Shown: positions 1,561-33,548, counted from the first letter of the stretch. The stretch is DNA of 64,000 nucleotides from Verrucomicrobiota bacterium (GCA_014193395.1 BJHT01000005.1:1035-65034), one strand, 5' to 3'. Numbers and translations: made by a program. Notes: generated by a model not told the origin, from the letters alone.

Positions 1561-2424
1561 TCACGCTTGCTGACGGGCGCGTTCCATCGCCGCGGCGATT
1601 TCGCGTTCCATCACGGGCAAGGGATTGAGCCAGGTCAGCGGGTCGCTGACGGCGGTGACGCGGTTCGTTTTGGGATCCCAATGCACCGGGCCGAAACGCG
1701 CGGGCGCAGGCCGGTCGCGCAGCAGGTGGCCCATCGCGTCGTCCTTGTTGAAATGCCAGAACTCGAAGGGGAAATGGATGAAGCCGTGAGCCTCGACCAT
1801 GGCGGTGATTTCCAGGCGATTGCGGAGCGCGTCGGGTGTGATGAACGGCGAGCGCATGGGCGTGTTCTCGCTCATCTCCAGATAGGGAAATCCGCGCCAG
1901 ACCTCGGAGCCGTCGTCGCGGCGGAACACGGAAACGTCGATGGCTGACCCGGACATGTGCGTGCCGATCTTGGGGATGTTGGCGACGAGCACGAGCGCGC
2001 GGCGCGCGACCATCTCGACCGGCGGCAGGGTGCCGCCATTTTCCCAGATGCACTTGCGGACGATGGCATCGAAAACCTCAGGCTTGCGCACCAACTGGCC
2101 CTGCATCTCGAGCGACCGAAAGGCGTCCTCGATTTTCAAAATCCACCCGCGCGCATTCATGTCGCGGCCCACGTTCACCACGTCACGCACCAGGCTTTCG
2201 CGCATGTAAAACACGCGGTCGAGTCCACCGGCGATCTTGGTCGTGGAGAAAAGCATCTCGACGCCGGCGGCACGCGCGGCGTCCGGCAGCGAGGCGAAAC
2301 CTTCCCCACACTCGCGCACCTCGAAGGGCAGGATTCTCTGCACAAAGTCATAACCGAGCTGCATCTGCTCGGCCCAGTAGGCGCGGCGCGCGGCTTCGTC
2401 GTGGGGGATTTGAGTGGTGTTCAT
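1561..2424 (-). CDS. M15 family D-Ala-D-Ala dipeptidase-like metallopeptidase (VanX/DdpX-like)
   Basis: IEDAFRS..MQ, THMSGSAID (SxHxxGxAxD-like) and EFWHF zinc-ligand motifs; no signal peptide. Confidence 0.8.
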   Translation of the reverse strand: MNTTQIPHDEAARRAYWAEQMQLGYDFVQRILPFEVRECGEGFASLPDAARAAGVEMLFSTTKIAGGLDRVFYMRESLVRDVVNVGRDMNARGWILKIEDAFRSLEMQGQLVRKPEVFDAIVRKCIWENGGTLPPVEMVARRALVLVANIPKIGTHMSGSAIDVSVFRRDDGSEVWRGFPYLEMSENTPMRSPFITPDALRNRLEITAMVEAHGFIHFPFEFWHFNKDDAMGHLLRDRPAPARFGPVHWDPKTNRVTAVSDPLTWLNPLPVMEREIAAAMERARQQA

Positions 2425-2469
2425 AGGGTGGGTTTTTGGGAAATAAGCAACAGACTGCTTGAAAACCCG

Positions 2470-2541
2470 GTTTGGAGTTCCGCGTTTACGCGGCTCGGGC
2501 CTCGTGCGACAAGCGGGCCGCGCAAACGCGGAACTCCAAAC
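2470..2541. repeat. GGAG-type REP doublet (inverted pair)
   Basis: gtttggagttccgcgtttacgcggc (2470-2494) vs gccgcgcaaacgcggaactccaaac (2517-2541); each arm has its own ccgcg..cgcgg hairpin. Confidence 0.85.
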
Positions 2542-2596
2542 TCAGTCCACCGCAGCTCAAAGGATTTTTCCAAACGGTTCATAGATTGCTTTGGTG

Positions 2597-3688
2597 TCAC
2601 GGCTTCAACTTCAGCTCCACCAGATAGATGGCCGTAATAGCCTTCCCCGCCGCATCCTTCTCATGACTTGAATAGTAGGAAACGAGAGCGCGCGTAGGAG
2701 AGAGGGTTACGAAGCCGGGATAGGAGTTGTCGCCTTCGCTGGGGAATTCGGCGAACTCTTGTAACCCATCACCCACGAGCCAGCAGAGCGAGGTCTTCGG
2801 GCCGCGGTCGGTCGTGGTCTTGCGCCCGCCGACGATGGTGTGTTCGCCCCAGCGCGCGAGCAGGGGACCGCCGATGTGGCGGTCGAGGTCTTTGCGATCC
2901 CATTCGAGGTAGGGCGGGCGGGAGCGGTAGAGACGCGCGTTTTTGCGTCCGCCGTGCCGACCGACGGCGAGGACAGAACCGTCTTTCTCGAAGAGGAACG
3001 CGGTCTCGTCACCGGCGGACTCCGCGAAGAAGGCACGCTTTTTCCAGATCAGGCCGTCGTCGCTTTCGAGCATGAGCGCCTGAACCTTTTCACCTTCGCC
3101 CCGGGCATTGATGTCGAAGTCAGGGTAGCGACGACCGCAGAGATAAGCTCGGTCGCCGAAAGTTGCCGCACGCCAGATGTAATGACCGAAGGTGCCTTCG
3201 AGCAGCACGGGGCTATTCCACGCGGTGCCGTCATCGGACCACGCGGCGTAGCCGAGATGCTTGTTTACGTCCCATTCCGTCCGCGGGAGAGGTTTCCCGC
3301 CGGTCCACCAAGTGCCGGAGTAAACGAAGAGCCGGTCGCGGAAGATGAGAAAGTGCGGATCGCGCGTGTCGCGGTCCTTCACGGCGAAACGATGCGCCGG
3401 CTCCCAAGTGGCGCCTTCGTCCTTGCTGCGGAGAATGATCACCGAGGCGGTCGAAAAGACGCCGTGGCCGTCCGGGCAACTGCGGAAGGTGAGGTAGAGA
3501 TGGCCTCGAAACCGGCAGAGGTCGGTGAAGGCGTTGTGCTCGCCATTGTGAAAGGCGCGCCGCACTGGACTGACAGTGACCTGCGGGGGCGGGGCGGCGA
3601 CGGCAGTCAGGGCCACAGCCGCGAAAACCAGCAGCGCCGAAGAGAGCCGCACCAAGGAAGCAATGGAGAGCATACGCATAGGATTCAT
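2597..3688 (-). CDS. Secreted BNR/Asp-box beta-propeller (exo-sialidase-like) protein
   Basis: Signal peptide after MNPMRML; Asp-boxes SKDEGATW, SDDGTAW, SDDGLIW; GDNSYPG. Start 3688 preferred over 3793, which lies inside a repeat. Confidence 0.75.
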   Translation of the reverse strand: MNPMRMLSIASLVRLSSALLVFAAVALTAVAAPPPQVTVSPVRRAFHNGEHNAFTDLCRFRGHLYLTFRSCPDGHGVFSTASVIILRSKDEGATWEPAHRFAVKDRDTRDPHFLIFRDRLFVYSGTWWTGGKPLPRTEWDVNKHLGYAAWSDDGTAWNSPVLLEGTFGHYIWRAATFGDRAYLCGRRYPDFDINARGEGEKVQALMLESDDGLIWKKRAFFAESAGDETAFLFEKDGSVLAVGRHGGRKNARLYRSRPPYLEWDRKDLDRHIGGPLLARWGEHTIVGGRKTTTDRGPKTSLCWLVGDGLQEFAEFPSEGDNSYPGFVTLSPTRALVSYYSSHEKDAAGKAITAIYLVELKLKP

Positions 3689-3759
3689 GGGGTGAGTCTG
3701 ACTCAAGGTTGCTTTGGTGTCATGCCAATACACTCGCAGAGGAGGCGCATTCCAGGAGA

Positions 3760-3993
3760 TACCAATCTCTGCGAAAGTCCGTGCCGTACGCACCGGGACC
3801 TCTGGCTCCCTCTCCTCCGTTCGGAACGGAGGAGAGGGTTGGGGAGAGGAGGGACTTCGCCATGACGAGACCGCACCGAAGAGTGGGGCACCCCTCTCCC
3901 CGGCCGTCCCCCCGTTCGTGCCTCACGGGCCGAGCGAGATGGACGCGTTTCTCGTGTTGGCGACTCCGGCACGAACTTTTGCAGCGGTTGATA
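3760..3993. mobile_element. MITE-like element with 26-bp imperfect TIRs beginning and ending in TA, carrying internal CCCTCTCC hairpins
   Basis: taccaatctctgcgaaagtccgtgcc (3760-3785) vs revcomp of 3968-3993 tatcaaccgctgcaaaagttcgtgcc, 21/26; internal perfect 15-bp inverted repeat 3808-3838. Confidence 0.65.
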
Positions 3994-3994
3994 G

Positions 3995-5398
3995 CTACCG
4001 CGCAGGCTTGCCATCACCCACCAACTCGCGAATCCGCACCACCGCTTCATTTATCAGCCTCTCGCCCGCGTCCGCGGCCAGGAAGCTACACTCGGCTGCG
4101 CCGTAGCCGCCCTCTTTCACAGCCTGCGCGGTCGGAATGTACACCACGAACGGCGTGCCCCGTCCGTGATACGCAAGGCCAAGGATGAACGTGTTGGGAA
4201 TGGGTGACTTAGCAGTAAGATCAAGCTGGTGTTGGATGAAAGGTTCGCCGGGGATGGCCACCAAGGCAAGGTCCTGATTGATGACAACGGTCAGCAACCC
4301 AACATCGGTAGTCTGGGTGCCATTTCGGTGCGGGAGGGCCAGGAGACTCTCTTTCACCCGGAGGCTGGGACGGAGAGTATCGGACTGTGGCTTGAGAGTT
4401 GCGGCCACGCGCAGCGCACCTTTGGCCAGGGAAATACCGGCCTGTCGGGAGATATTGAAGCGATTTTCACCGCGGAGATTGTGCAGGTCATAGGGATCAA
4501 GGTCGCCCGACGCGCCTTGCAGAAACATGGCCATGCAGTCACTGCCGAGTTCCTGTTCGAGATAGTCCACCATGGCTCCGGGATAGTCTCGCGAGACTAC
4601 TCCGGCACCCATGAGCGCGACCGGGTGACACGCATACTGCACGGCGAAGGCGCGTGGCTTGCCCGACAAGTCATCGACCCGCAGCACGCCGACAGTCGGA
4701 TCGACGGGTTGGGTTGGCCGGCGGTCGGGGTTTTCCCACAACGGCAGGACACGGTCGGGTCGGACCAGCCGCCGGTTGTGGGCCATGTAGGCGCTCTCCA
4801 ACGATCCCTTCCCGGAGACCAGGCGCGCAGGGAAGAGACTCTTCATCGCCTTGCCGATGGCGGCGACCACCTTGTCCTCAGTCGCGGCATACCACGGGTC
4901 CGCCGAGAGACCGGGCCAATCGACGGCGACGCCCGGGCCTTTGGGGCTGCGCGTCCAGTCCGGCGCGGCGGGCGGCTTGATATAAAGTCCTCGTGGTGCC
5001 ATGGCGGCATGGGTGTGGGTGGCGCAGAGGATCACCTGATCGACGCCCCATCTGGCCTTCGCCTCGGCGATCACCTTCTGCGACGCAAAGACTATTAAAT
5101 CCAGCGAGACAATCGCCACGGACTGAGTCTCACTCTTGAGGATAAGCACGCGCGCATAGAGCGGGTCACGCAGGCGCAGCGGCTGGCCCAGGAGATTCAC
5201 CGCCTCCTGTTCCGTCGGAGTTATCTCAACCTTGGCAGTTCCGGCTAAGAAGGTAGGTGCCGAGGCGGGGGCGGCGGAAATACTGAGCACTGAAATCAGC
5301 GAGAATAGGATAATAGAAAGAGCGGTAACTGGTAGGTGTGTTGTCAGTTGAGACTTCATGCGGGTGTTGTGGTCACCGGTGTGCTCGGGATATGTCAT
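3995..5398 (-). CDS. Neutral/alkaline ceramidase N-terminal-like amidohydrolase, secreted
   Basis: ATHTHAA, YACHP, SRDYPG, FLQGASGD, IPGEPF, GGYGA motifs; start 5398 (MTY) or 5359. Confidence 0.75.
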   Translation of the reverse strand: MTYPEHTGDHNTRMKSQLTTHLPVTALSIILFSLISVLSISAAPASAPTFLAGTAKVEITPTEQEAVNLLGQPLRLRDPLYARVLILKSETQSVAIVSLDLIVFASQKVIAEAKARWGVDQVILCATHTHAAMAPRGLYIKPPAAPDWTRSPKGPGVAVDWPGLSADPWYAATEDKVVAAIGKAMKSLFPARLVSGKGSLESAYMAHNRRLVRPDRVLPLWENPDRRPTQPVDPTVGVLRVDDLSGKPRAFAVQYACHPVALMGAGVVSRDYPGAMVDYLEQELGSDCMAMFLQGASGDLDPYDLHNLRGENRFNISRQAGISLAKGALRVAATLKPQSDTLRPSLRVKESLLALPHRNGTQTTDVGLLTVVINQDLALVAIPGEPFIQHQLDLTAKSPIPNTFILGLAYHGRGTPFVVYIPTAQAVKEGGYGAAECSFLAADAGERLINEAVVRIRELVGDGKPAR

Positions 5399-5416
5399 AG
5401 GTGCTAGCGGAAACTT

Positions 5417-5572
5417 GGGTGGCACAGGCTACCAGCCTGTGCCGTCTGGCGACTCGCCGGACGGAATGGGTGTGACGATGTTTTGGCGCAAGCGCGCCGG
5501 ATCGTATGAACATCTCCCTCCATTCCACCGGGCCAGTGGCCCGGCGGCACAGGCGGGTCGCCCGTGCCACCC
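5417..5572. repeat. GTGG-type double-hairpin REP doublet
   Basis: gggtggcacaggctaccagcctgtgcc...ggaatgg vs ccattcc...ggcacaggcgggtcgcccgtgccaccc. Confidence 0.8.
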
Positions 5573-5612
5573 GCCGACTATGATATGTCTGCCCTGATAA
5601 GTCATAGCTGCC

Positions 5613-6965
5613 TCACTTCTTCAAAGCCGCGGCTGTCTCTTGATGCTGCGCCCACGAGGCCTGCTGCAATTCCCTGGCGACCTCGGCGGGAATAGCGGCG
5701 GGTGCGGCGAGTCCGATGGGACTGCGCCCGGTCAACACACTGTAAATCCCACAGGCGTAGAGATAGGAACCTCGAAGACCGGGGTGCATTTTATCCTGGG
5801 CAAAGAGACTCTCCATTCGCTCGGCAGATGGTTGAGCGCCGAAGTATTTCGTGTAGGCCGGACTGGCATCCACGATGGGGACCGTGAGTTCCCTGCCCAT
5901 GTCCAAGTGCAGGCGATGCTGTCGCTCGAACCCCGCCGGATAGTCTCTGAGAATCGAAGCCGTCCCGAACAGCAGCGTCCGGGCACCGCTGCTTTTGATC
6001 AGTTCATGAAACTGCCGTGCGTACGGTTGAAAGGCGGCGGACTCGACATAGTAAATGTCCTGCAACACCACGAAATCCCAGCCGCCGCCGGCAATCATCC
6101 CGCGCGCCGTATTGGTCCCGACCCCCAGCTCCCAATGACTGCGCAAGGTGGCACCGCCTTTGATGCAGCCGGTGATATGAATGGCCGGGGCACTCCGGTC
6201 CGACTCCGCGAGGTTTTCGATCAGGCGGTTGCTCACGAGGAGCGGGCATTGGCTGTTGCCGATCATCAGTACGCGCAGCGGTTTCTTCGGCACCGGGAGC
6301 AGCGTCTCGATGGCTTGCGCCACCTGCTTCGACTGCAAGGCCGTGCCCTCGGCGGTGTAATGCACGCCGCCGCCGTCCCACAGCGGCTTGGAATGCTTCG
6401 CGACCAGGGAGTAAAGATCGTTCACCGCGATGCCCGCTCGGGCGATGTGTTCGGCGGCAATCTGGTTGCGCTCGATCACGTTCCGGTCCGGCGCGCCGTC
6501 CTTTTGCTGGCAGGGCGTGGTGGTGGCCCAGACCAGTTTCGCTCCCGGCGCATAGCGTTGCAGGGTGGCGAGGACATCTGCGAAGCCGGATCGGAAACCC
6601 GCCACGCCGCCGTGCAGGCCGTAGTTGAAATGGACCACGGCGTAGGCGTTTTGCCGGAGCACCAGTTTGATCTCATCCAGCAACGCCGGATCGCCCACCG
6701 CCTTCGAGGTGCCCAGCACCGAAACGTAGGCGCGATCCTTGAGCGCGGCACCCACCTCGGCAGCGTAGCGGACGGTAATCGAATCGCCGATCAACAACAC
6801 CAGCGGCAGCACCGGACCGTTGGGCGGCCGGGTCTTGATGGTGATGGTACACCAGTCGTGCGCCTCGCGTGGGAGGGGGTAGTCGTAGCGGTCCTCGGCA
6901 GGGAAGGGTGCGGCGGCGGAAACAAACGTAAGCAACCCGACGAAAAGGAGCAGGCACCGGATCAT
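5613..6965 (-). CDS. Secreted tandem SGNH/GDSL hydrolase (two domains)
   Basis: LIGDSIT..NYGLHG..GVHY and IGNSQ..VVLQD..DKMHP; signal peptide from MIRCLLL (alternative start 7061). Confidence 0.85.
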   Translation of the reverse strand: MIRCLLLFVGLLTFVSAAAPFPAEDRYDYPLPREAHDWCTITIKTRPPNGPVLPLVLLIGDSITVRYAAEVGAALKDRAYVSVLGTSKAVGDPALLDEIKLVLRQNAYAVVHFNYGLHGGVAGFRSGFADVLATLQRYAPGAKLVWATTTPCQQKDGAPDRNVIERNQIAAEHIARAGIAVNDLYSLVAKHSKPLWDGGGVHYTAEGTALQSKQVAQAIETLLPVPKKPLRVLMIGNSQCPLLVSNRLIENLAESDRSAPAIHITGCIKGGATLRSHWELGVGTNTARGMIAGGGWDFVVLQDIYYVESAAFQPYARQFHELIKSSGARTLLFGTASILRDYPAGFERQHRLHLDMGRELTVPIVDASPAYTKYFGAQPSAERMESLFAQDKMHPGLRGSYLYACGIYSVLTGRSPIGLAAPAAIPAEVARELQQASWAQHQETAAALKK

Positions 6966-7117
6966 GGTTTGGATATTTTGAAGTTTCGGCAACTTGCCAC
7001 ATGACTGCGTTGGGTCAGCGGGTTGTCCGCGGAGAGTGTCCGTGATGGCATGATGCTTCAATTCCTACTTTTGCCCATTGGCAATCTTCGCGAATGCTGC
7101 GGGGTCGGCGGGTTGGC

Positions 7118-9211
7118 CTACTTCAGCACCTCCGCCAGCCATTCGTAGGCGGCCGTCCGCTCGGCTTCGGGGAAATCGTGCGGCGCGTCGGGGGTGGCGA
7201 GCCGCAGGCGCCCGGGCGCGTCAAACAGCGCATAGACTTCCGCGGCCTTTGCAAACGCCTTGCGCACGCCGCGGATGTCGAAGTTGCTGTCCCGAAGCGG
7301 CGAGTTGGAAAAGAAGCCACGCGGCGCAAGCGCTCCGAGGACTTCGTAAAAATCAAACGGCAGGTTGTCGGCATTGTTCCCGAACACGTCCCGAATCCGC
7401 GGCATGTAGCGGTCGCTGGTCCATCCGGCAACGCGCCCGCCGTAGTAATCGTGGAACGGAGTGAAACCGCAGCTCGAAACGACGGCCTTAAGCCGCTCGT
7501 CGAACACGGCGGTGAACAGCGAGTTGTGCCCGCCAAGGGAATGGCCGATCACGCCGAGACGGCGCGGGTCCACCTCGGGCAGCGATTCGAGCAGATCGAC
7601 CGCGCGAATATTATTCCAGATCGCCTTCATGGAGCCGCTGCCGTAATGCGCGCCCTGCTTCTTGAAATCATAGGGATACTCGCCGAAGGACGGATAATCG
7701 GGCACGAGGCAGACGAAGCCGCGCTCGGCCAGTTCGTGCGCGTAGTGCAGCGACGGCAGGCCGCCGAGGCCCGCCGGCTCGTTCTTCCCGATGCCGGTGG
7801 TCTGGTGGAGACAGAGCATGCCCGGAGCTTTGCCGCCATCCGCGAGGGCATCGGGAATCAGCAACCACGCCGGCACGCGGTCCCCGGTCTCGGGCGTGAA
7901 CCGCACCTTGCGCCGCCGGTATTTCTCCATGCACTCCTCGAACACAGTCTCGACGCCGAGCGGCACGCGGCGCGCGGCCTCGGGCAACGGCCCCATGGCC
8001 TGCTGCATCCCGGCGCGAATCTGCGCGACCCGCTCCGCCCACTCGGCCTTGGTTTTCACCGTCCGTGGCAGGCCATTTGCGTCCTCGAACTCGAGCAGCT
8101 GCGAACGATCCAGACAGCGCCCCCAGGGTCCCGGCTCGAACGACCCGACGGGAAACCCGGCCGCATACGAAATCACCCACTCCCCGTTCGGCGTGCGATA
8201 CCGAATCTGTTCGCCCCGTTCAAAATCCGTGGCCCCGACCCGTCGGCGCGCCGTCGGACCATCAGGCCGCAGATACTTCTCTGCCGCCGCCAAGACGATG
8301 TCCGTAGTGCCAAAGAAGTGACCGGCGGTCTTGTGAACCTTGCCGTCCACGTCGGCCTTCGTGATGTACTTCGCCTCCACGTCGAGCCCCACGCGCTTCA
8401 TCGCTTCCACCATTTCCACCGCGTCGGCGTAAGGGCAGACCGTGTCTTCGGCCCCGTGAATCACGACCACTTTGGCGCGCGCCCCGAGCTGTCTCATGGT
8501 GGCAAGATGGACGGGATGCCCGACAAACCGAAGCTCCTGCTCGTCGGCGGTAAGATAGTTCCGGCTGCGCGGATCACGGCTCCAGCGGGCATTGAGCGAA
8601 CTGCCGCCCGGGAGATTGAAAGCAATGTCATCCGAGAGCTTTTTCATCCCGCACATGTCCACCACGCAGGCGAAGGTGCGGGGCGCGAGCTTGTTCGCCA
8701 TCAGTGTCACATTGCCGCCGCCGGAACCGCCGGTGCAAAAAATCCGGTCGTCGGCAAACGGCCTGCCCTGCGCGGCGAGCCGGTCGCGCACCCACCACAA
8801 GGCGCGCAAGGCATCCAGCGCCTGCAGGTAGCCGAAATCATACGGCTCCGGCGCGTCAATCGAGTCCGCCTTGCCGCTCTGGAGGTAGTTCACGCAGACC
8901 GCGACCACGTTCAGCCGCTGCGCCAGCACCCGCGGATCGGCCGTCCCCACGCAATCGCTGCCGCCCCAATTGTGCAGCGTAAGCATGAGACCCGTCGCCG
9001 CATTCACGCCGTCCAGCGCGCCACCGGGATAATGCACCAGCACCCGCACGCGCCGCGGCCCAGGCCGTTGCGGCCACTCCTGCGCCGGTAACTCGGCCGC
9101 AGCATCCTTTGCGGGAAGCTCCGGCCATTCCGCCGCAGCGAGCGCCCCCGACGCGAGCAAGACCGAAAGACAGAAGGACAGTGACAAGGCGGAATAGCGT
9201 AGAAGTGTCAT
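7118..9211 (-). CDS. Secreted double alpha/beta-hydrolase (DUF2920-like + acetylxylan-esterase/Abhydrolase_7-like)
   Basis: Two nucleophile elbows GGSGGG and GHSLGG; signal peptide. Confidence 0.8.
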   Translation of the reverse strand: MTLLRYSALSLSFCLSVLLASGALAAAEWPELPAKDAAAELPAQEWPQRPGPRRVRVLVHYPGGALDGVNAATGLMLTLHNWGGSDCVGTADPRVLAQRLNVVAVCVNYLQSGKADSIDAPEPYDFGYLQALDALRALWWVRDRLAAQGRPFADDRIFCTGGSGGGNVTLMANKLAPRTFACVVDMCGMKKLSDDIAFNLPGGSSLNARWSRDPRSRNYLTADEQELRFVGHPVHLATMRQLGARAKVVVIHGAEDTVCPYADAVEMVEAMKRVGLDVEAKYITKADVDGKVHKTAGHFFGTTDIVLAAAEKYLRPDGPTARRRVGATDFERGEQIRYRTPNGEWVISYAAGFPVGSFEPGPWGRCLDRSQLLEFEDANGLPRTVKTKAEWAERVAQIRAGMQQAMGPLPEAARRVPLGVETVFEECMEKYRRRKVRFTPETGDRVPAWLLIPDALADGGKAPGMLCLHQTTGIGKNEPAGLGGLPSLHYAHELAERGFVCLVPDYPSFGEYPYDFKKQGAHYGSGSMKAIWNNIRAVDLLESLPEVDPRRLGVIGHSLGGHNSLFTAVFDERLKAVVSSCGFTPFHDYYGGRVAGWTSDRYMPRIRDVFGNNADNLPFDFYEVLGALAPRGFFSNSPLRDSNFDIRGVRKAFAKAAEVYALFDAPGRLRLATPDAPHDFPEAERTAAYEWLAEVLK

Positions 9212-9367
9212 GGTAAGGATGCCGGCACCGGCCGTGCAAAAGGCGCGACTTAGTCGTGACTGTTCATTCGAGCGGCTTCAGATGAACCACGGAGCGCGGG
9301 GGAGGGCAAGAGTGGCTGCAATACTTTGCCAGCCTCCGGAGTGAGTACGCGGAGGGTGCGCATCCCC

Positions 9368-9479
9368 CCTGCCCTCTCTGCGTCTCTTCCCATCTCTGCG
9401 GTGTAATCAGGAAACGCTCCGATCGTAGGGGCGCGGAGTGGAACACCGCAGAGATCGGAAGGGACGCAGAGAGGGCAGG
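9368..9479. repeat. CGCAGAG-family inverted repeat, copy 1
   Basis: cctgccctctctgcgtctcttcccatctctgcggtgt / acaccgcagagatcggaagggacgcagagagggcagg. Confidence 0.85.
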
Positions 9480-9599
9480 AGCCGATGGGAGCGCCCCACA
9501 ATCGCACGGCAGACGGCCACGCTCCTGAGATACCCCCGGCATGACTCCCGCATAGGTTATTGACTGCCCTAACCACCCGCCGTGCGCTGCAAACGTGCC

Positions 9600-13037: not shown

Positions 13038-13071
13038 GGTGGTTTCTTAGCTGCGGGTGGAGTTTAGGTAA

Positions 13072-15866: not shown

Positions 15867-15886
15867 GGGTTGGGCAGGGGAAAATT

Positions 15887-16234
15887 CTAGTTCTGGGCGA
15901 AGGCTTCGATCAGGTACCACTCGCGGATGACGGCTTCCTCGACGCGGGGCAGGGTGCGGTAATGGGTCGCGCTCAATTCGGAACGCAGTGCGTTCCAATT
16001 TGGGAAGGCGTTATAGAAGAGCCGCATGTAACGCAGGTTCGAGGCATCAAACCTATCCCCGAATTCGGTCGTCAGTTGCCGGTCCAGGCGGTCGAGCAGC
16101 CCGTGTTCATACGCGGCGCGGATGACTTCCCGCAGATCGTGGAACAGCGTCTCGACGACCGGCACGTTGTTGGCGGCGGCGGGGGCTTGAGCCGCGGGCT
16201 TGCGTTGCGGCTTGGGCTTTGGTTTGGCGGGCAT
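15887..16234 (-). pseudogene. Truncated DUF1016/YhcG N-terminal fragment
   Basis: FDASNLRYMRLFY..F..ELSATHYR...REWYLIEA resembles the YhcG N-terminal domain; stops before any PD-(D/E)XK domain. Confidence 0.75.
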
Positions 16235-22144: not shown

Positions 22145-22271
22145 ATTGCTGGGGCGTTCGGCTTGGGACGACAGACGAGCTTGCGCCGGTCGTCGTCGAG
22201 TTTGGTGATTGCGCTGCCGATAGTTTCAGTTGCCGGCCGATTTCTGGGGCGCGCCGGGAACGATTGAGCGG

Positions 22272-26138: not shown

Positions 26139-26166
26139 GTTGGGCTAAGAGGTCGGGAGCGGGAAG

Positions 26167-27186
26167 TCAGGGCTTCAACCACTCGTCGCGATGTTGCGCG
26201 ACAAAGGCGTCGTCGTGGAGATGCGGATAGGCGCGATAGACGCGGTCGATCTCGGCGAGCTGGCCGGGGCTGAGGGTTTCGTGTTCGTCGAGGCACCAGA
26301 GGCCTTCGAGCAGGCCCTGGCGGCGCAGCACTTCATGCAGGCCGGCGATGCAACCGCGGAAACCATTCGCGGCATCGAAGAAGGCGGCGTTGCTGTCGGT
26401 GACTTCGACGCCGAGGCGGAGGAGGTCGGGTGTGGCGTCGGCGCGGCGGCAGCGGTCGAGGAGTTCGACGGCGCGGCGGGTCCAGACGGACCAGTGACCG
26501 AGCAGCCCGCCGACGATGCGGCGCTCCTGGCCGGCGACGCGGTAGGGCGTGAGAAAATCGGCGACAATGTTGTCGTCGTTGCCCGTGTAGAGCGCGAGGT
26601 CGTCGCGGCCGGCTTCGATCACGGCGCGGACGACGTCGAGCGTTTGGTAGCGGTTGAACGGGGCGATCTTGATGGCGACGACGTTTTCAATTTCCGCAAA
26701 GCGTCGCCAGAACGCGTAGGGCAGCACGCGTCCGCCGACGCTGGGCTGGAGGTAAAAACCAACGACCGGGATGATTTCCGCGACGGCACGGCAGTGGGCG
26801 ACGAGGGCGTCTTCATCTGCGTCGCGCAACGCGCCGAGGCTGAGGAGCGCGGCGTGGTAGCCGAGTTCGCGCACGAGTTGCGCTTCGGCCACGGCTTGCG
26901 CAGTGCGGCCGCAGACGCCGGCGATGCGGACGAGCGGCTGGCGGGCGCGGGACATTTCCTCGGCGGCCAGCGCGAGAACGGGATGGAAGAGGCCGACCTT
27001 GGGATCGCGGATGGCGAATTGCGTGGTGTGAACGCCGACCGCGAGGCCGCCCACGCCCGCGGCGAGATAGTAGCGCGTGAGCGCGCGCTGGCGGCGCTCG
27101 TCGAGACGACGCGCGGCGGTGAGCGCGAGGGGATGGGCGGGGATGACGAGGCCGTGCTGGAGGCGGGAGCGCAGGTCGGGGGTCAT
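26167..27186 (-). CDS. Dihydrodipicolinate synthase/N-acetylneuraminate-lyase family aldolase
   Basis: VIPAHPLAL, GVHTTQF, FYLQP, Schiff-base AIKIAP, YTGNDD. Confidence 0.85.
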   Translation of the reverse strand: MTPDLRSRLQHGLVIPAHPLALTAARRLDERRQRALTRYYLAAGVGGLAVGVHTTQFAIRDPKVGLFHPVLALAAEEMSRARQPLVRIAGVCGRTAQAVAEAQLVRELGYHAALLSLGALRDADEDALVAHCRAVAEIIPVVGFYLQPSVGGRVLPYAFWRRFAEIENVVAIKIAPFNRYQTLDVVRAVIEAGRDDLALYTGNDDNIVADFLTPYRVAGQERRIVGGLLGHWSVWTRRAVELLDRCRRADATPDLLRLGVEVTDSNAAFFDAANGFRGCIAGLHEVLRRQGLLEGLWCLDEHETLSPGQLAEIDRVYRAYPHLHDDAFVAQHRDEWLKP

Positions 27187-27656
27187 AGTTTCATCGCGTA
27201 GTGAATCTGCCGGCCGGCCTCGACGAAGCCGCAGGACGGGTAAAGATGTTGGCCCACCGGATTGTTGACCATGGTCTCGATCATCGCGAAGGCCATGCCT
27301 TCGCGGCGGAAGTACTCGAGGGCGTGTTCGATGAGCTGGCGGCCGACGCCTTGACCGCGTGCGGCCTTGTCCACGGCGAGGTTGGGGATGCGCCCCTTGC
27401 GGCCCTCGCGGTCGAGGCGCGTGGAGATGTAACCGAGCACTTTCCCATCTTCCTCGGCGACCGCGACGAAAACGCCGGTGGGATTGGCTTCGCAGTCTTC
27501 GTCCACATGGCGCGCCTTGCGCCAGCGCCAGTCGTGGCCGCCGACGATGCCGAGCTGCCGCTCGACGTTTTGATCAATGGCAATGCCCTCGAAACCTTCG
27601 ACGGTGATGCGGCGGAGTTCGGGGAGGTCAGCGGGTTGATAGAGTCGGATTTGCAT
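27183..27656 (-). CDS. GNAT family N-acetyltransferase
   Basis: LAVDKAARGQGVGRQL acetyl-CoA motif; LYPSCGF. Confidence 0.9.
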   Translation of the reverse strand: MQIRLYQPADLPELRRITVEGFEGIAIDQNVERQLGIVGGHDWRWRKARHVDEDCEANPTGVFVAVAEEDGKVLGYISTRLDREGRKGRIPNLAVDKAARGQGVGRQLIEHALEYFRREGMAFAMIETMVNNPVGQHLYPSCGFVEAGRQIHYAMKL

Positions 27657-27706
27657 GGTCAGGGCGAAGGCTGGCGAAGTTGGATGGGATCAGATGGGAG
27701 AAATTG

Positions 27707-28078
27707 AACCACGGATAAACACGGATGAAACCGGCACGGCGATGTCCGTCGCCGAACGCGCGGTGTTTGGAGTGCGGGGACTTGTCACCGCTTTGTCGAG
27801 GCGACTTGTCGCCGTCGAACAGCGGGAGGCGCGGATTTGGAATGGGGCGTTCACGGCTCGCGCCAGCGGTGGCGCGCCGGCAAGAAGGGAGCCGGTCGGC
27901 AAGTTTGACGGCGACAAGTCGCCTGCGCAAAAGCGGTGACAAGTCACCGCACTCCAAAACGACCGGGCAGGCGCGCTGTGCGACATAGTCGTCGGCGACC
28001 CGGCTTGTGTTGCGGAACGGAAGGTCGGCGTCGCGCACCCTCTTTCCCATCCGTGTGCATCCGTGCACATCCGTGGTT
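27707..28078. repeat. Nested element: CACGGAT 10-bp-period inverted arms enclosing a GGAG REP doublet (27766-27958)
   Basis: aaccacggataaacacggatg / atccgtgtgcatccgtgcacatccgtggtt; inner tttggagtgcggggacttgtcaccgcttt / aaagcggtgacaagtcaccgcactccaaa. Confidence 0.9.
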
Positions 28079-28117
28079 TTCCAATTCCCATTCCCATTTT
28101 CATTTCGGAGTTCGCGA

Positions 28118-29146
28118 TCAGAAGCGGCCGTCGGTGGTTTCAAAATGCGTGGGCTTGCCAAGGGTCGCGCCGCCTTGGCGGACCCATTGGGCGGTGGCGT
28201 CGATCATTTCTTCGAGCGAGACAATGGGCGGGCCGAAGAGCGCGTAAGAGCGCGTCGCATCCCAGCTCCACACGGTCGCGCCTTCGTGCTCGGCGATGAT
28301 CGGCGCGCGCCCGAACAGATCGCCGAAGCGCTGCGCGAGCCAGCGGATGGACACGCGCTGGAGGCCGGTGACGTTCAACGCGAGCGGCGGCGTGGCGGCG
28401 TGCGCGAGGCACTGGATGGCGCGGGCGTTCGCATCGCCCTGCCAGATGACATTGGCCGCACCCATCGTGACATCGACGGGCTGGCCGCGGGCGACCTTGT
28501 TCGCCACGTCGCAGAGCACGCCGTAGCGGAGATCAATCGCGTAGCAGAGGCGGAAGAGGAGCGTGGGCGTGCCGTTCTGTTTGGCGAAATGGGTGAAGAC
28601 ACGCTCGCGGCCGACACACGAGTTGGCGTATTCGCCGGGCGGACCGAGCGCGTCATTTTCATGCGAGCCGGGGCCATCCGCGCGGACGAGGGGATAAACG
28701 CAGCCGGTGGAAAACACGACGATGCGCGAGCGGGCGAAGCGCTCGGCCACGATGGCGGGGACGAGCGTGTTCATCACCCACGTCAGTTCGGGCGCCTCGC
28801 TGGTGCCGAATTTTTGACCGGCCATGAAAATGACATTGGGCGCGTCGGGGAGCGCCTGGACGGCGGCGCGATCGAGCAGGTCGCACGCGATGGTTTGCAC
28901 GCCGTGGCGCTGGAGTTCCGCGGCGGCGGCGGCTGATGAAAAGCGCGAGACGGCGAAGACGCGCCGGTCGCGGCGGCCGATTTCATCAAGGCCGCGGCGC
29001 ACCATGCGGGCGAGCGTCGGACCCATCTTGCCGCCCGCGCCGAGAACCAGCACATCGCCGTCGAGCGCGCGGAGCGTGGCGAGCACGCCGGGCGTGGGGA
29101 GGCTGAGCTGGTCGTCGAGATCGGCGAGGGTCAGGAGCGGTTTCAT
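28118..29146 (-). CDS. NAD-dependent epimerase/dehydratase family protein
   Basis: GAGGKMG Rossmann motif; FSTGCVY; YANSC. Confidence 0.85.
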   Translation of the reverse strand: MKPLLTLADLDDQLSLPTPGVLATLRALDGDVLVLGAGGKMGPTLARMVRRGLDEIGRRDRRVFAVSRFSSAAAAAELQRHGVQTIACDLLDRAAVQALPDAPNVIFMAGQKFGTSEAPELTWVMNTLVPAIVAERFARSRIVVFSTGCVYPLVRADGPGSHENDALGPPGEYANSCVGRERVFTHFAKQNGTPTLLFRLCYAIDLRYGVLCDVANKVARGQPVDVTMGAANVIWQGDANARAIQCLAHAATPPLALNVTGLQRVSIRWLAQRFGDLFGRAPIIAEHEGATVWSWDATRSYALFGPPIVSLEEMIDATAQWVRQGGATLGKPTHFETTDGRF

Positions 29147-29188
29147 GCAGTGGCAGTCGTGTCGGTGATGGCGGTGATGGCGACGAGA

Positions 29189-30202
29189 TTACTTGGCCGC
29201 GCGCACGGGACGCAACGGCGGCAGCGCGATCAGCTTCTTTTCATCCGCCGCCTCACGCGCCCGCAGCACGACCTCGGTGATGTAGAAGCTGTCGTCCGCC
29301 GTGATGCGCGGGGGGCGGCCGCCGCGGAGGAATTTCACGAACTCGACGAAGATGTTCTCGGTAGTCTCAAACGGAATGCGTTCGGTCCCGGCCTCGGTGA
29401 CGAGCGTGATGGCGTCGTCGCCTTCATTCACTTCGACCACGCCCTTGGTGCCGGTGACCCGCAGGCGGTCATCGCCGTGCGTGGCAGCCTGGACGGGGCG
29501 CAGATAATCCAAACGGGCCGTGACGGACGCGCCGTTGGATAACTCCGCGAGGATCGACGCCTGATCCTCGGTCTCGCCGAATTCGGGCCGGCCACTGCGC
29601 CCATGGAACGCCGCGACGTGCGTGAAATCGAGGCCCGTGACCCAGCGGATGATGTCGAGCGAATGAATGCCGATGTAAGGGATCGTGCCGCCGAGCCGCG
29701 CGCGGCTCTGCAGCCACGCGGGTCGCTCGCCCCATTTGTAAGACTTCTGCGTCGCCACCTGCGAGACCGTGCCGATGCCACCGCGCTGGATGATTTCGCG
29801 GACGCGCGCGTATTTGGGCTGATGACGCAGTTCGAGGAGCATGGTGAGCTGCGACTTGGATTTCGCGAACGCGGCGCGCAGACGCTCGAGATCGGCCAGC
29901 GTGGTGACGAGGGGCTTTTCGGAAATGATGTGAACGCCGCGTTCGAGCAGCGCGAGCAACTGCTCGAGGCGCATCCCGCTCTCGTCGGCGACGCAGCAGA
30001 CATCGGGCAACGTATGTTCGAGGACGTGTCGCCATTCCGCGTAGGCCTGCGCGGCGTGGGACTGCGGGAGGCGTTTCAGGAAGGCCTCGGCGGCTTTGAG
30101 ATTGTTGTCGGACACCGCGACAACCTCGACATCGCCGAGCAGCTTCGCCCCCGCGACGATGGCGGTGACGTGGCCTTTGAGTCCGAGCAATGCGAGTTTC
30201 AT
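29189..30202 (-). CDS. Gfo/Idh/MocA family oxidoreductase
   Basis: HIISEKP; GGTIPYIGIHSLD; GTKG. Confidence 0.85.
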   Translation of the reverse strand: MKLALLGLKGHVTAIVAGAKLLGDVEVVAVSDNNLKAAEAFLKRLPQSHAAQAYAEWRHVLEHTLPDVCCVADESGMRLEQLLALLERGVHIISEKPLVTTLADLERLRAAFAKSKSQLTMLLELRHQPKYARVREIIQRGGIGTVSQVATQKSYKWGERPAWLQSRARLGGTIPYIGIHSLDIIRWVTGLDFTHVAAFHGRSGRPEFGETEDQASILAELSNGASVTARLDYLRPVQAATHGDDRLRVTGTKGVVEVNEGDDAITLVTEAGTERIPFETTENIFVEFVKFLRGGRPPRITADDSFYITEVVLRAREAADEKKLIALPPLRPVRAAK

Positions 30203-30298
30203 CGGTGGGTGACAGGTTTCATGCGGCGGTTTTTGTGGTGCGATGGATAAGACACGGACGCGCGTTGGTTTTCAACCGCGCGACGGGCGGGGGAAAAT

Positions 30299-30324
30299 GG
30301 CAGAAAAATAGGGGGCAGAAAAAT
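30299..30324 (+). repeat. Solo arm of GRC-N5-AAT class (ggcagaaaaat x2, 15-bp period)
   Basis: ggcagaaaaat at 30299 and 30314. Confidence 0.6.
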
Positions 30325-30500
30325 GGCGTGGGGAGCGGGTTGTTCGTCCGCGGGGACCGGCGTGAGTTCTTCGGGCTGTCTGGAAACGTCGGCCCGCGCA
30401 ACAACCACCGGGCACCCAAGCCCCCGCCTCCGGCGGCTACCGCGACCGGGCCAACGCGTGTTTGCCAACCTGAATCTGACCCCCAATCCCCGAAGCGGAA

Positions 30501-30579
30501 TGGGCAAAGGAATGGAGGCAAAGGAATGAAGACAAGAAGTCGCCACGTCCCCATTCCTTTGCCTCCATTCCTTTGCCCA
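30501..30579. repeat. Perfect 28-bp inverted repeat of the GRC-N5-AAT class (ggcaaaggaatg x2, 14-bp period)
   Basis: tgggcaaaggaatggaggcaaaggaatg / cattcctttgcctccattcctttgccca; 23-bp spacer. Confidence 0.9.
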
Positions 30580-30637
30580 CAATTCCGCTGCCCCATTCCC
30601 GTGCGCCCATCGGCAGCGCGCCGCGGGGGTTTTTCCA

Positions 30638-30762
30638 GAGCGCGGCTATGTGCGGAGCGCCAGCCGCAGCAAGTGGTCCGCACTGGACGCCGCGGAATCC
30701 AACGGGTGCCCGCGAGGTTCCGGGGCCGCTGCGGCTGGTCCTCGGCGGACACAGCCGCGCTC
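30638..30762. repeat. GGAG-type REP doublet
   Basis: gagcgcggct...cagccgcagc / gctgcggctg...agccgcgctc. Confidence 0.75.
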
Positions 30763-30775
30763 CTCGGGTTGCGGC

Positions 30776-31549
30776 TCACGCGTGCATCACCTGGCCGCCG
30801 CCGAGGTTGAGGGTCTGGCCGGTGATGTTTTGCGCGTGATCGGAGGCGAGGAAGACCGCCATGGCGGCCATTTCCGCCGGCGTCTGCCAGCGGCCGAGCG
30901 GGGACACTTTGCGGATTTTTTCCTCGGCCCAGGTCGCGTAGTCCTGCCGCTCGGCGGGCGCGAGGCGCGCCTGACCGGCCTGCCAGACGGATTGATTCAA
31001 CTCGGTTTTTACCATGCCCGGCGAGAGCGCGTTCACGCGGATGCCGTGGGGCGCGAGGTCTTTGGCGGCGCACTGCATGAAGTTGATGAGTCCCGCCTTG
31101 GCCGCACTGTAGGGCGGGTCGGTCTGCGAGCCGATCTGGCCGGCGACGGAGACGAGAAACAGAAGCGAACCTTTCCGTCGCGTGATGAGTTTCGGGGCGA
31201 AGGCGTGCGCCACATTCACCGCGCCGAGGAGATTGATCTCCAACACGCGCGGCCAGTCGCCCGGCTCGAGATTCCAGAAGGGAAAACCGAATTTCCCCGA
31301 GCCAACACCGACCGAATAAACAACGTGATCAACCTCACCGAGCCCCGCGGCGAACGCGCGCACCTGCTCATACGAGGTGACATCGCCCGTCACGATGGTC
31401 GTGCCCGCGGACGGCGTGGCGGGGTCGGGCTTGCGGTCGAAGCCGTGGACGCGGCAGCCCTCGGCGACAAACTCGTCCGCGATCGCCCGCCCGATGCCGC
31501 GCGCTGCGCCGAACACGGCGACCGTTTGATTGGCGAGATTCAGTTGCAT
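30776..31549 (-). CDS. SDR family oxidoreductase
   Basis: GAARGIG, YSAAK, IRVNALSPG. Confidence 0.92.
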   Translation of the reverse strand: MQLNLANQTVAVFGAARGIGRAIADEFVAEGCRVHGFDRKPDPATPSAGTTIVTGDVTSYEQVRAFAAGLGEVDHVVYSVGVGSGKFGFPFWNLEPGDWPRVLEINLLGAVNVAHAFAPKLITRRKGSLLFLVSVAGQIGSQTDPPYSAAKAGLINFMQCAAKDLAPHGIRVNALSPGMVKTELNQSVWQAGQARLAPAERQDYATWAEEKIRKVSPLGRWQTPAEMAAMAVFLASDHAQNITGQTLNLGGGQVMHA

Positions 31550-31892: not shown

Positions 31893-31970
31893 ATGAACTG
31901 CCGCGCCTTCCTCGCCACGCTGCCCGTGCTGACCGCGCTCATGGCGGCGCGCCAGGCGCTCGCCGCGTAG
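31893..31970 (+). pseudogene. Orphan signal-peptide-only ORF (25 aa)
   Basis: MNCRAFLATLPVLTALMAARQALAA*; degenerate twin-arginine motif, ends at an AxA site. Confidence 0.45.
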
Positions 31971-32052
31971 GGGGATAAACGGAACGCGTAACCATCCGAA
32001 CTCCACTGGAAATAACCGCCCCGCCACCATCCCCTGCCCTGCCGAAAAAACC

Positions 32053-33366
32053 ATGAGCGCCATCTCCCCATCGCAACCAGTTCACGCCCGGATTTCCGGC
32101 GCATCGTGGGCCATCCTCGCCCTGATGGTCGTGTCGGTGGCGATCAACTACATCGACCGCACGAGCCTCTCGACAGCCGCGCCGTTGCTGGTGCGCGAGC
32201 CGGAGATGGAGATTTCGGCTGCGAAGCTGGGCGTGCTGCTGTCCGCGTTTTTCTGGACCTACTCGTTTCTGCAACTCGCTTCCGGCTGGCTGGTGGATCG
32301 CTACGGCGTGCGCTGGGTGATGGCGATCGGCTTCATCGTCTGGTCGCTGGCCACGGCGGCGACGGGTTTGGTGTACGGGTTCTCCGCGTTGCTCGCGCTG
32401 CGCCTGCTGCTCGGGGCCGGCGAATCCGTGGCGTATCCGTGTTACTCAAAAATCATCGCCGGCAATTTCGCCGAGCATCAGCGCGGACTCGCGAACTCGC
32501 TGATCGACGCGGGCACCAAATTCGGCCCGGCGCTGGGCATTCTCGGCGGCGGAATACTCATGGATCGCTACGGCTGGCGGCCGGTCTTCCTCGTGCTGGG
32601 ACTGGGCAGCCTGCTGTGGCTGCCGGCGTGGTTTAAGTGGATGCCGAGCGGCCACGCGGCGACGCAGACGACCCCGAGCGGCGGCCCCGGCTTCGCGGAA
32701 ATCTGCGCGCAACGGCAGGCGTGGGCGACGTTCATCGGGCACTTCAGCGGCAATTATCTCTGGTATTTTCTGATCACCTGGCTGCCCTCCTATCTGGTGA
32801 AAGAGCGCGGTTTCACCATGTCCCACATGGCTTACGTCGGCGCGCTGGCGTTTTGCGTGACGGGCATCTCGACCATCATCACGGGCACGATCGCGGACCG
32901 GGCGATCACACGCGGCGCGACGCCCACGCGGGTGCGCAAGACCTGCGTGATCCTCGGCCTCGGGCTGGCGACCTCGGTGGTGACGGTGACGATGGTGGAA
33001 GGCACGCAGGCGTCGATGGCGTGCCTGATGTTTGCGTGCATCGCGCACGGAATCTTCGCCTCCAGCCACTGGGCGATTGCGCAGACCATCGCGGGGCCGG
33101 TGGCGGCGGGGAAATGGACGGGGATGCAGAACTGTCTCGCCAACATGGCGGGCGTGGCGGCCCCGGCGATCACGGGCTTCGTGGTGGACCGCACCGGCCA
33201 GTTTTTCTGGGCCTTCGCCGTGTGCTCGGCGGTGGTGCTGACCGGTGCCGCGGCTTACGCGTTCCTGCTGGGGCCGGTGGTGCAACGGGTGTGGGCGTCG
33301 CAGGAGAGCAGCGAGCCGCGGCGTTTCGAGGCCGGAAACGAACAAACGGAAAATGGCAAATTATGA
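32053..33366 (+). CDS. MFS transporter (ACS/sugar-acid type)
   Basis: INYIDRT, GWLVDRYG, LRLLLGAGES; many hydrophobic segments. Confidence 0.9.
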   Translation: MSAISPSQPVHARISGASWAILALMVVSVAINYIDRTSLSTAAPLLVREPEMEISAAKLGVLLSAFFWTYSFLQLASGWLVDRYGVRWVMAIGFIVWSLATAATGLVYGFSALLALRLLLGAGESVAYPCYSKIIAGNFAEHQRGLANSLIDAGTKFGPALGILGGGILMDRYGWRPVFLVLGLGSLLWLPAWFKWMPSGHAATQTTPSGGPGFAEICAQRQAWATFIGHFSGNYLWYFLITWLPSYLVKERGFTMSHMAYVGALAFCVTGISTIITGTIADRAITRGATPTRVRKTCVILGLGLATSVVTVTMVEGTQASMACLMFACIAHGIFASSHWAIAQTIAGPVAAGKWTGMQNCLANMAGVAAPAITGFVVDRTGQFFWAFAVCSAVVLTGAAAYAFLLGPVVQRVWASQESSEPRRFEAGNEQTENGKL

Positions 33367-33389
33367 ACCGAAAATGGGCGGGGGAGGTA

Positions 33390-33528
33390 AACCACGAAAA
33401 ACACGAAAGACACGAAAACAAAGAGCGTCGGCGTGTCTGATTCCGCTCCACACATCGCGCCTGCTCGAAACAAAATCTCGATACCGAGAAGCTTTCCCCT
33501 TTTCGTGTCGTTCGTGTCTTTCGTGGTT
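33390..33528. repeat. CACGAAA 9-bp-period triple-repeat inverted element
   Basis: aaccacgaaaaacacgaaagacacgaaaa / ttttcgtgtcgttcgtgtctttcgtggtt, 27/29; 81-bp spacer. Confidence 0.9.
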
Positions 33529-33548
33529 CCAACTCCGTTTTTGAAAAA

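Follow-up and report, generated by a model that had tools for sequence, protein, structure and literature searches.

The window analysed here is a stretch of 64,000 nucleotides from a Verrucomicrobiota genome of 7.9 Mb with a GC content of 0.642 (GCA_014193395.1, BJHT01000005.1:1035-65034). Pfam matches and our own gene calls delineate on its reverse strand a run of co-directional genes for glycan and sugar breakdown, which includes SDR, GFO/IDH/MocA, epimerase, GNAT, DHDPS-like, heparinase-like and BNR members as well as DUF6807-TPR, beta-helix, S9 peptidase, GDSL, M15 and other members. From 31870 to 14286 the run is syntenic with the congeneric genome G003 at about 90% nucleotide identity. 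The open reading frames (ORFs) in question are located in the gaps of this run, and the initial annotation had described them as 'bridges' that span most co-directional intergenic gaps and are positioned for translational coupling across palindromic elements. We scored as a bridge any ORF with an ATG or GTG start between -4 and +15 nt from the upstream stop and an end no more than 40 nt from the next start. The gaps considered were co-directional, with a minimum length of 60 nt in the window (n = 10) and a length of 60-700 nt genome-wide (n = 1707). The coordinates of ORFs (a), (c), (d), (f), (g), (h) and (i) were confirmed (Table 1). The palindromic elements are equally real, with inverted repeats of 28-72 nt in six gaps, and the gap sequences of the window recur in tens to hundreds of copies genome-wide.

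Table 1. Features of the window; positions are counted from its first letter, and starts and ends are given relative to the neighbouring reading frames.
Feature	Coordinates	Strand	Size	Gap and repeats	Start	End
Gene run	1561..31549	-	about 18 genes			
ORF (a)	2421..2582	-	53 aa	strict bridge over 172-nt gap; hairpin repeat 2470-2541	ATG 14 nt past stop 2597-2599	ATGA overlap with ATG 2424
ORF (b)	3703..4050	-	115 aa		inside upstream gene	
ORF (c)	5429..5605	-	58 aa	bridge only if next gene starts at GTG 5425	7 nt past a stop	3 nt ahead of GTG 5425
ORF (d)	9250..9603	-	117 aa	388-nt gap; hairpin 9368-9479	ATGA overlap	38 nt ahead of ATG 9211
Palindromic element (e)	18796..18974		72-nt arms	in open in-frame extension of next gene		
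ORF (f)	22141..22275	-	44 aa	unique (non-repeated) 127-nt gap	ATGA overlap	ATGA overlap
ORF (g)	27690..28103	-	137 aa	461-nt gap; copy of largest checked repeat family at 27757-27963	14 nt past a stop	33 nt ahead of ATG 27656
ORF (h)	30219..30779	-	186 aa	573-nt gap; repeat copies (30453-30624, others)	GTGA overlap	then 7-codon relay 30222->30199
Mini-ORF (h2)	30199..30222	-	7 codons		ATGA overlap with ORF (h)	ATGA overlap with GFO gene start
ORF (i)	33374..33544	+	56 aa	182-nt gap; hairpin arms 33390-33418 and 33500-33528	7 nt past a stop	4 nt ahead of ATG 33549

Three of the proposed cases needed revision. ORF (b) begins 53 nt within the upstream gene (stop 3995-3997) and hence is no bridge by the initial annotation's own rule; the start ATG 3688 downstream of it is supported by an N-terminus that, by eye, resembles a signal peptide. 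The real start after ORF (c) is probably ATG 5359, 69 nt past the end of the ORF, because a signal-peptide-like stretch begins there as judged by eye. Element (e) had been described as read in frame, and the next gene is indeed open through it from ATG 19028, but it holds no separate ORF. Here, too, the position of a signal-peptide-like stretch (by eye), which directly follows the element, suggests that the gene probably starts at the distal edge of (e) and that the element lies upstream; in G003 all three frames of this region are open. Downstream of ORF (d), a signal peptide recognised by eye starts at 9211.

In the window, 7 of the 10 qualifying gaps were bridged compared with 1.75 expected from shuffles (P = 1.6e-5; P = 1.9e-4 against the genome-wide rate), which is the single highest value among 119 sliding sets of 10 gaps in the genome. 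Taken one by one, the shuffle probabilities were 0.25-0.33 for ORF (a), 0.035-0.05 for (d), 0.6-0.8 for (f) and 0.19-0.24 for (i). Genome-wide, about 270 of the 1707 gaps were bridged (15.8%), or 23.6% when relays, that is chains of up to 6 ORFs, were counted. The statement that bridges occur in most co-directional gaps is thus confined to the window, since about 84% of gaps in the genome carry no bridge and 76% remain uncrossed when relays are counted. On the other hand, the sense strand did exceed its antisense and dinucleotide-shuffled controls: the identical pipeline returned 14.0% for flank-swapped gaps, 12.5% for the antisense strand, 12.1% for the shuffled antisense and 11.1% for the shuffled sense strand. 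The same was observed in G003, where 130 of 635 gaps were bridged (20.5%) compared with 79 of 623 in antisense (Fisher 2e-4; control range 10.8-12.7%). Taken over the whole genome the excess is modest, and the window represents the upper tail.

Much of this background would be expected from the way the genome is built and annotated. Rare stop codons in DNA of 64% GC, in gaps about 0.02 per codon, would yield open gap frames, stop-poor repeats would leave frames open across gaps, and gene ends would supply free 'overlap' starts and stops. In addition, calling the first in-frame start forbids ATG, GTG and TTG upstream in that frame and would deplete TGA from the +1 frame there; this artefact of the start rule was visible up to about 90 nt from starts, where stop density differed between frames. 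Together, these four built-in effects are predicted to produce bridges in 11-12.5% of gaps. The consensus of family g, the largest family checked, has two of three frames free of stops in each orientation, and members of families a, d, e, h, g36a and g36b carry an open frame in nearly every copy and in any context, convergent and divergent gaps included. As to the gene ends, 37.4% of stops have the form RTGA and 43.7% of starts precede an A; in 638 of the 1707 gaps an RTG shares bases with the upstream stop, and RTGA stops and A-followed starts coincide in 16.6% of cases compared with 16.3% expected under independence. The ATGA and GTGA overlaps, initially read as signs of coupling, are therefore a default of gene ends; bridge ORFs end most often at an offset of -4 (87 instances), yet this has to be set against the share of all starts that precede an A.

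The repeats themselves are abundant. Of the intergenic DNA, 33% consists of REP-like palindromic sequences (413,084 of 1,253,185 nt repeated at least 6 times), with 47-264 loci per family and 199 copies of family g, and 15-20% of repeat copies fall inside called genes. They were present in 1231 of 2559 co-directional gaps (48%), 385 of 593 convergent gaps (65%) and 321 of 616 divergent gaps (52%), and in the latter two classes there are no co-directional neighbours that could be coupled. No preferred orientation with respect to transcription was found in families g (63 sense, 73 antisense), h (35 and 27), d (22 and 16) and a (11 and 13), nor among long repeat segments (2906 in the same and 2882 in the opposite orientation). 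Among 1113 gaps, the first repeated nucleotide lies at most 5 nt from the upstream stop in 25% and at most 15 nt from it in 39%, and 186 of 243 presence/absence events lack a flanking direct repeat. A search of the ATGA junctions for an insertion-site signature found none. The genome contains 9 matches to PF01797 (Y1 transposase, of either RAYT or IS200 type), 5 of them with E <=3e-20. The initial annotation had proposed that elements persist in operons only when ribosomes can cross them. As a rule, this is contradicted by their placement, as elements are as common or commoner in convergent and divergent gaps, and by the low rate of bridging in the 958 element-bearing gaps (13.4%) and in gaps of at least 60 nt here that measure less than 60 nt in the congener (5 of 37, by subtraction).

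With moderate confidence, we regard the gap-crossing ORFs as mainly a by-product of high GC content, stop-poor REP/BIME-like repeats, overlaps at gene ends and start calling. The margin over controls suggests that about two thirds of the bridges are incidental and that the other third may stem either from weak selection, in some operons, for letting ribosomes through or from positional sequence features outside our controls. The excess on the sense strand is 1.3-1.4 fold overall and reaches about 2.5-3 fold where gaps exceed 350 nt: among gaps of 351-700 nt, in which stop density is the same as in shuffles, 37 of 449 were bridged in sense, compared with 3.2% in antisense and 2.5-3.1% in shuffles. 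Relays followed the same trend, with an antisense value of 20.0% against the sense value given above and with 20.3% against 11.3% in long gaps. Among repeat segments of at least 250 nt, an open frame was found in 67.7% in sense and 44.3% in antisense (discordant 92 vs 26), and in 53.5% and 42.2%, respectively, after removal of those touching the longest start and the gene's own frame (47 vs 26, p = 0.019). Copies of family g were open in 122 of 132 cases in sense and in 100 of 132 in antisense. The sense strand of gaps is also C-rich and G-poor (0.327 vs 0.295), an RNA composition that favours Rho loading.

These strand-specific signals would be expected from a MIRU-like relay, in which repeat insertions in co-transcribed runs, as the present one would be, are better tolerated with the frame open from stop to start. 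Terminating ribosomes would then re-initiate, unwind hairpins, prevent Rho from binding the C-rich RNA and reach the next gene, irrespective of the peptide sequence. We consider such a relay possible but less probable than the by-product account. Consistent with it, 25 of 50 bridges were kept between two congeneric genomes compared with 11 of 40 antisense pseudo-bridges (p = 0.034), and 7 of 15 compared with 1 of 7 in restructured gaps. Although gap (g) has been restructured and has diverged by 22.6%, it carries a bridge in three genomes, of 141 aa in G002 and of 57 aa in G003, where the gap measures only 182 nt, and the mini-ORF ahead of the GFO gene is equally readable in G003, in which the counterpart of ORF (h) has 138 aa and stops 69 nt ahead of the start. 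Substitutions were even over the codon positions of bridges (127/128/120), as expected if only openness matters. However, besides the large majority of gaps that are crossed by neither bridge nor relay and the rarity of bridges in the gaps that are short in the congener, several results argue against a relay. Indels inside bridges were not enriched for multiples of three (39 of 137, compared with 125 of 552 elsewhere), and retention of any open frame was alike on both strands (62% vs 66%). The lengths of presence/absence events in co-directional gaps (n = 165) showed no significant departure from an even distribution modulo 3 (67/50/48). Across classes of same-strand run length, bridging was 15.8, 14.4, 15.1 and 20.7% in sense and 10.6, 12.4, 13.7 and 15.2% in antisense, which amounts to no clear rise with run length and a small one only in runs of more than 10 genes. 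Finally, since flank swapping retains most of the excess, little of it comes from phase matching of a gap to its own gene ends.

A further reading takes the bridge ORFs as real small protein genes, or the repeats as sequences translated within neighbouring proteins. ORFs (d), (g) and (h) are indeed long for non-coding DNA, the frame of element (e) continues into the next gene, and the copies inside called genes noted above would suit translated repeats, but we consider this reading very improbable. The dicodon log-odds of bridge ORFs are negative, with a median of about -0.3 to -0.4 per codon compared with +0.74 for called genes, and resemble those of antisense ORFs; the flanks of repeat-spanning ORFs scored above 5 in only 4.1%. 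Pfam searches found no family in ORF (a) or in the bridge ORFs generally, and the even spread of substitutions likewise speaks against coding. ORF (f) persists in G003 and differs there by 24 substitutions without any indel, yet its peptide is only about 61% identical (counted by eye), compared with 91-93% for the flanking proteins. For element (e), an extension of 80 residues before the signal-peptide-like stretch, delimited by eye, is unlikely to be a functional N-terminus. On sequence evidence, the bridge peptides are free of protein-level constraint and are not functional proteins.

Among known systems, the elements resemble REP/BIME/REPIN sequences in being short GC-rich palindromes with hundreds of copies and mosaic clusters, in lying close to stop codons and in presence/absence events that mostly lack target duplication; the Y1 transposase genes would be a likeness as well if they are of RAYT type. 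The preference for convergent gaps is a further likeness, according to the available part of PMC3733652, and the same part states that REPs at predicted N-termini are often non-coding, as we propose for element (e). It makes no mention of an excess of open frames on the sense strand such as that seen here. Our units also differ from REP/BIME/REPIN in being long (100-210 nt) and nested. Rickettsia palindromic elements are in-frame insertions in genes, and element (e) and the 'genic' copies are likewise palindromic repeats open in frame. Most copies here are intergenic, in contrast to the Rickettsia elements, which are named (RPE) in the available part of PMC3733652, and the single in-frame copy probably lies ahead of the real start. 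As far as sequence can tell, mini-ORF (h2) shares its architecture, with ATGA at both ends, with the short coupling upstream ORFs treated in the available part of PMC12548453. In contrast to the latter, it lies in a genome where overlaps of this kind come about by default.

A parallel to a relay is provided by MIRUs of the senX3-regX3 type. Like the elements here, they are repeated sequences that lie between co-directional genes in a GC-rich genome and are traversed by an ORF. Supply et al. 1997 is said to be the source for MIRU insertion at start codons and for the ensuing coupling, and reportedly describes the MIRU as placed such that its ORF reads in the direction of the flanking genes. The available part of PMC12548453 provides a printed precedent: MIRUs reportedly insert at start codons, the repeat ORF then couples at -4 nt, and, as here, the ORF overlaps or directly adjoins the stop and the start on either side, with ribosomes supposed to pass. 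Our elements differ in being hairpin palindromes, MIRU units being arranged head-to-tail, in lacking orientation bias relative to genes, in not being specific to operon gaps, and in bridging only 13-16% of gaps without a signature at ATGA junctions. They do share with MIRUs a bridging of the transcribed strand that is above chance, if modestly so. We put forward, as a tentative and rather unlikely proposal, that Limisphaerales-type Verrucomicrobiota harbour operon-invading arrays of REP-like hairpins that are filtered for an open sense frame, relay ribosomes and shield the transcript from Rho. If true, this would give the MIRU arrangement a palindromic counterpart of genome-wide extent, recognisable by a surplus of stop-free frames that is confined to the sense strand and outlasts the turnover of repeats between species.

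Our gene calls and Pfam matches outline a series of genes related to sugars and glycans on the minus strand, from 31549 down to 1561, whose larger gaps hold inverted repeats of 28-72 nt and whose gap sequences occur in tens to hundreds of copies genome-wide. The initial annotation had proposed that most co-directional gaps of the window are spanned by short ORFs running from the upstream stop to the next start, here called bridges. ORFs a, c, d, f, g, h and i, as well as h2, the 7-codon mini-ORF following h, were found exactly as described. The start of ORF b lies 53 nt within the upstream gene, and item e is not a separate ORF: the next gene's reading frame simply remains open through it. Directly after this element comes a signal-peptide-like stretch, assessed by eye as were all signal peptides, which places the real start of the gene probably at the distal edge of the element. 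ORF c does end next to GTG 5425, but a signal-peptide-like N-terminus begins only at ATG 5359; starts 9211, 3688 and 22144 are likewise backed by such N-termini.

Features of the window and transposase ORFs elsewhere in the genome
Feature	Location	Strand	Remark
ORF a	2421-2582	-	bridge-like ORF
ORF b	3703-4050	-	starts inside upstream gene
ORF c	5429-5605	-	bridge-like ORF
ORF d	9250-9603	-	bridge-like ORF
115-aa ORF	15887-16234	-	DUF1016-type, probably a gene fragment
Item e	18796-18974		in-frame extension of next gene
ORF f	22141-22275	-	bridge-like ORF
ORF g	27690-28103	-	bridge-like ORF
ORF h2	30199-30222	-	7-codon relay
ORF h	30219-30779	-	bridge-like ORF
ORF i	33374-33544	+	bridge-like ORF
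tRNA gene	37106-37188	-	only Rfam match in 1-44000
6817-aa giant ORF	43534-63987	-	reaches the window's end region
Full-length Y1 (IS200/RAYT-type) transposase ORFs (n=5)	G000:C219, C427, C42, C89, C301		151-200 aa; candidate mobilisers

For counting, we used a fixed rule: a bridge has its ATG or GTG between -4 and +15 nt relative to the upstream stop, and its end either lies no more than 40 nt before the longest possible start of the next gene or overlaps that start by up to 4 nt. Under this rule, bridges cross 7/10 of the co-directional gaps that measure 60 nt or more in 1-44000, or 6/10 if start 5359 is used. The former value has a P of 1.6e-5 against shuffles and ranks first among 119 sliding sets genome-wide, for a window singled out from a very large scan for its visible pattern. 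Our dicodon model called no bridge ORF, and ORF f, with an ATGA overlap on either side of its 127-nt gap, is reproduced in 60-80% of shuffles.

All genome-wide counts are based on this dicodon caller, trained by us and yielding 5638 genes (80% coding), together with two start definitions. Bridges occur in 15.8% of the 1707 co-directional gaps that measure 60-700 nt, meaning that the claim of bridges in most such gaps holds in the window but fails genome-wide. The upstream stop is overlapped by RTG in 638 of the 1707 gaps, 43.7% of starts are followed by A, giving TGA in the +1 frame, and the two co-occur exactly as independence predicts. In addition, choosing the first start of an ORF excludes ATG, GTG and TTG from that frame further upstream, and the +1 frame thereby loses TGA close to the start. 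Since these overlap defaults and the start-rule bias inflate naive comparisons, we passed all controls through the same start-calling step. Bridges were then found in 14.0% of gaps when real interiors were placed between the flanks of another gap, and in 12.5%, 12.1% and 11.1% of antisense, shuffled antisense and shuffled sense controls, respectively. In gaps of 351-700 nt, real sense strands reached 8.2% (37/449), compared with 5.7% after flank swapping, 2.5% for shuffled sense, 3.2% for antisense and 3.1% for shuffled antisense; when relays of up to six ORFs were allowed, the frequency was 23.6%, versus 20.0% on the antisense strand and 16-19% in shuffles. Judged against controls from the same pipeline, only a minority of gaps is therefore bridged, with a modest excess on the sense strand.

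In this GC-rich, repeat-rich genome, the controls put the default level of bridging at about 11-12.5% of gaps. Stops in gaps occur at only ~0.019-0.021 per codon. The consensus of family g, the largest repeat family checked (207 nt, 199 copies), is stop-free in two of three frames whichever way it is read, and six other families have an open frame in almost every copy and every context, convergent and divergent gaps included.

The proposal that elements persist in operons only if ribosomes can cross them is refuted as a rule, as 84% of co-directional gaps have no bridge and bridging reaches 13.4% among 958 element-bearing gaps. Where gaps are short in G003, a congener genome of ~90% nucleotide identity, but long here, 5/37 are bridged (determined by subtraction). 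Indels gave no signal of frame-keeping, multiples of three making up 39/137 inside bridges and 125/552 elsewhere, and any open frame was retained alike on both strands (62% versus 66%). We saw no clear rise in bridging with the length of same-strand gene runs. Furthermore, repeats are as common or commoner where no co-directional pair exists to couple: genome-wide, the share of gaps with at least 6-fold repeats is 48% for co-directional, 65% for convergent and 52% for divergent neighbours.

What remains is an excess on the sense strand that is moderate and reproducible. In the 2.71 Mb of G003, with independent gene calls, 130/635 gaps were bridged versus 79/623 on the antisense strand and 10.8-11.9% in shuffles; given the shared ancestry of the two genomes, this replicates the measurement and does not represent independent evolution. 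Across 268 orthologous gaps, 25/50 bridges were kept, compared with 11/40 pseudo-bridges, that is, bridge-like ORFs on the antisense strand (p=0.034). All three genomes of the genus in which the gap of ORF g is present have a bridge there; this gap is 22.6% diverged from that of the second congener, G002, and in G003 it measures only 182 nt and differs in content. The genomes likewise share ORF f and the 7-codon relay that precedes the GFO gene. Such conservation is what a genuine MIRU-like relay would predict in a subset of operons, this one included, a reading that we regard as the less likely one. On balance, the bridges appear to be mostly incidental, with a small probability left for other readings, and the pattern reported initially is real in the window and not general.

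Several sources of the excess were considered. Uncalled real genes were rejected, as the coding score per codon is about -0.3 to -0.4 for bridge ORFs and +0.74 for genes, and is negative for the non-repeat flanks of repeat-spanning ORFs as well. No bridge ORF had a Pfam match, and substitutions in 11 bridges kept in both genomes were distributed 127/128/120 over the three codon positions. Orientation bias of the repeats is absent in large families and long segments, which insert either way; some bias was seen in small families (g36b 15/32, g38 4/12, family i 7/1). Target-site duplication of the ATGA junction gave no signal, with indel boundaries from pairwise alignments being imprecise. With C at 0.327 and G at 0.295, gaps are skewed towards C on the sense strand, and this skew leads to ~10% fewer sense-strand stops in long repeat segments; as a full cause it was dismissed because skew-keeping shuffles fail to reproduce the excess. 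Repeat segments of at least 250 nt are open in 67.7% of cases on the sense and 44.3% on the antisense strand, a contrast due in part to the start-calling rule and to segments situated in an open upstream extension of the following gene. After removal of extension segments and the gene's own frame it was 53.5% versus 42.2% (p=0.019).

The surrounding genome is a 7.89-Mb draft of 730 contigs and 64.2% GC, in which 413,084 of 1,253,185 intergenic nt lie in at least 6-fold repeats. The Y1 transposase family has nine matches, five of them strong, and the five full-length ORFs are candidate mobilisers of the repeats. Comparison of 566 orthologous gaps with G003 revealed 243 presence/absence events of at least 60 nt, 186 of which had no flanking direct repeat. 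Based on inverted repeats, copy number, gap distribution, Y1 transposases and events mostly without direct repeats, we filed the elements as REP/BIME-like; none matched Rfam at the gathering threshold in 1-44000. Turnover of intergenic repeats is very fast between this genome and G003, whose flanking genes are ~90% identical. Among 1113 co-directional gaps, a repeat lies no more than 5 nt from the upstream stop in 25% and no more than 15 nt in 39%. Inside the glycan gene run, the 115-aa ORF matches only the N-terminal domain of DUF1016; its G003 counterpart is 72% identical, compared with 89-95% for neighbouring genes.

Public DNA runs containing this stretch are lake, river and drinking-water metagenomes, and none of the 22 is an RNA run. 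In four lake or river runs, contigs break at repeats and carry no information on the ORFs. Summed contig depth rises from ~10 to ~2000 at elements (27756-28123 and 30516-30699), and position 30266, inside ORF h, is A and not T in all four runs, with one contig each.

If the excess reflects selection, translating meaningless ORFs would be a general bacterial way to tolerate selfish repeats in operons, and the question would be testable in a lineage in which a third of intergenic DNA consists of repeats. If it reflects composition and annotation rules only, the case is a warning for GC-rich, repeat-rich genomes, where ATGA overlaps and gap-spanning ORFs are the default in 11-12% of gaps and, unless strand and shuffle controls have passed through the same start-calling rule, should be neither annotated as genes nor taken for coupling.

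A search of openly available full texts gave no mention of bridging ORFs in Verrucomicrobia or Planctomycetes repeats. According to a review, MIRUs appear to insert at start codons in such a way that the repeat's ORF couples at -4 nt (PMC12548453). Of four MIRU-type features compared, the elements described here have neither a location specific to co-directional gaps nor an orientation bias in the large families, and show no clear insertion signature at ATGA junctions; bridging above chance on the sense strand is the one feature they share. The elements fit the REP/BIME description in PMC3733652, which also cautions that a REP found at a predicted N-terminus frequently does not code.
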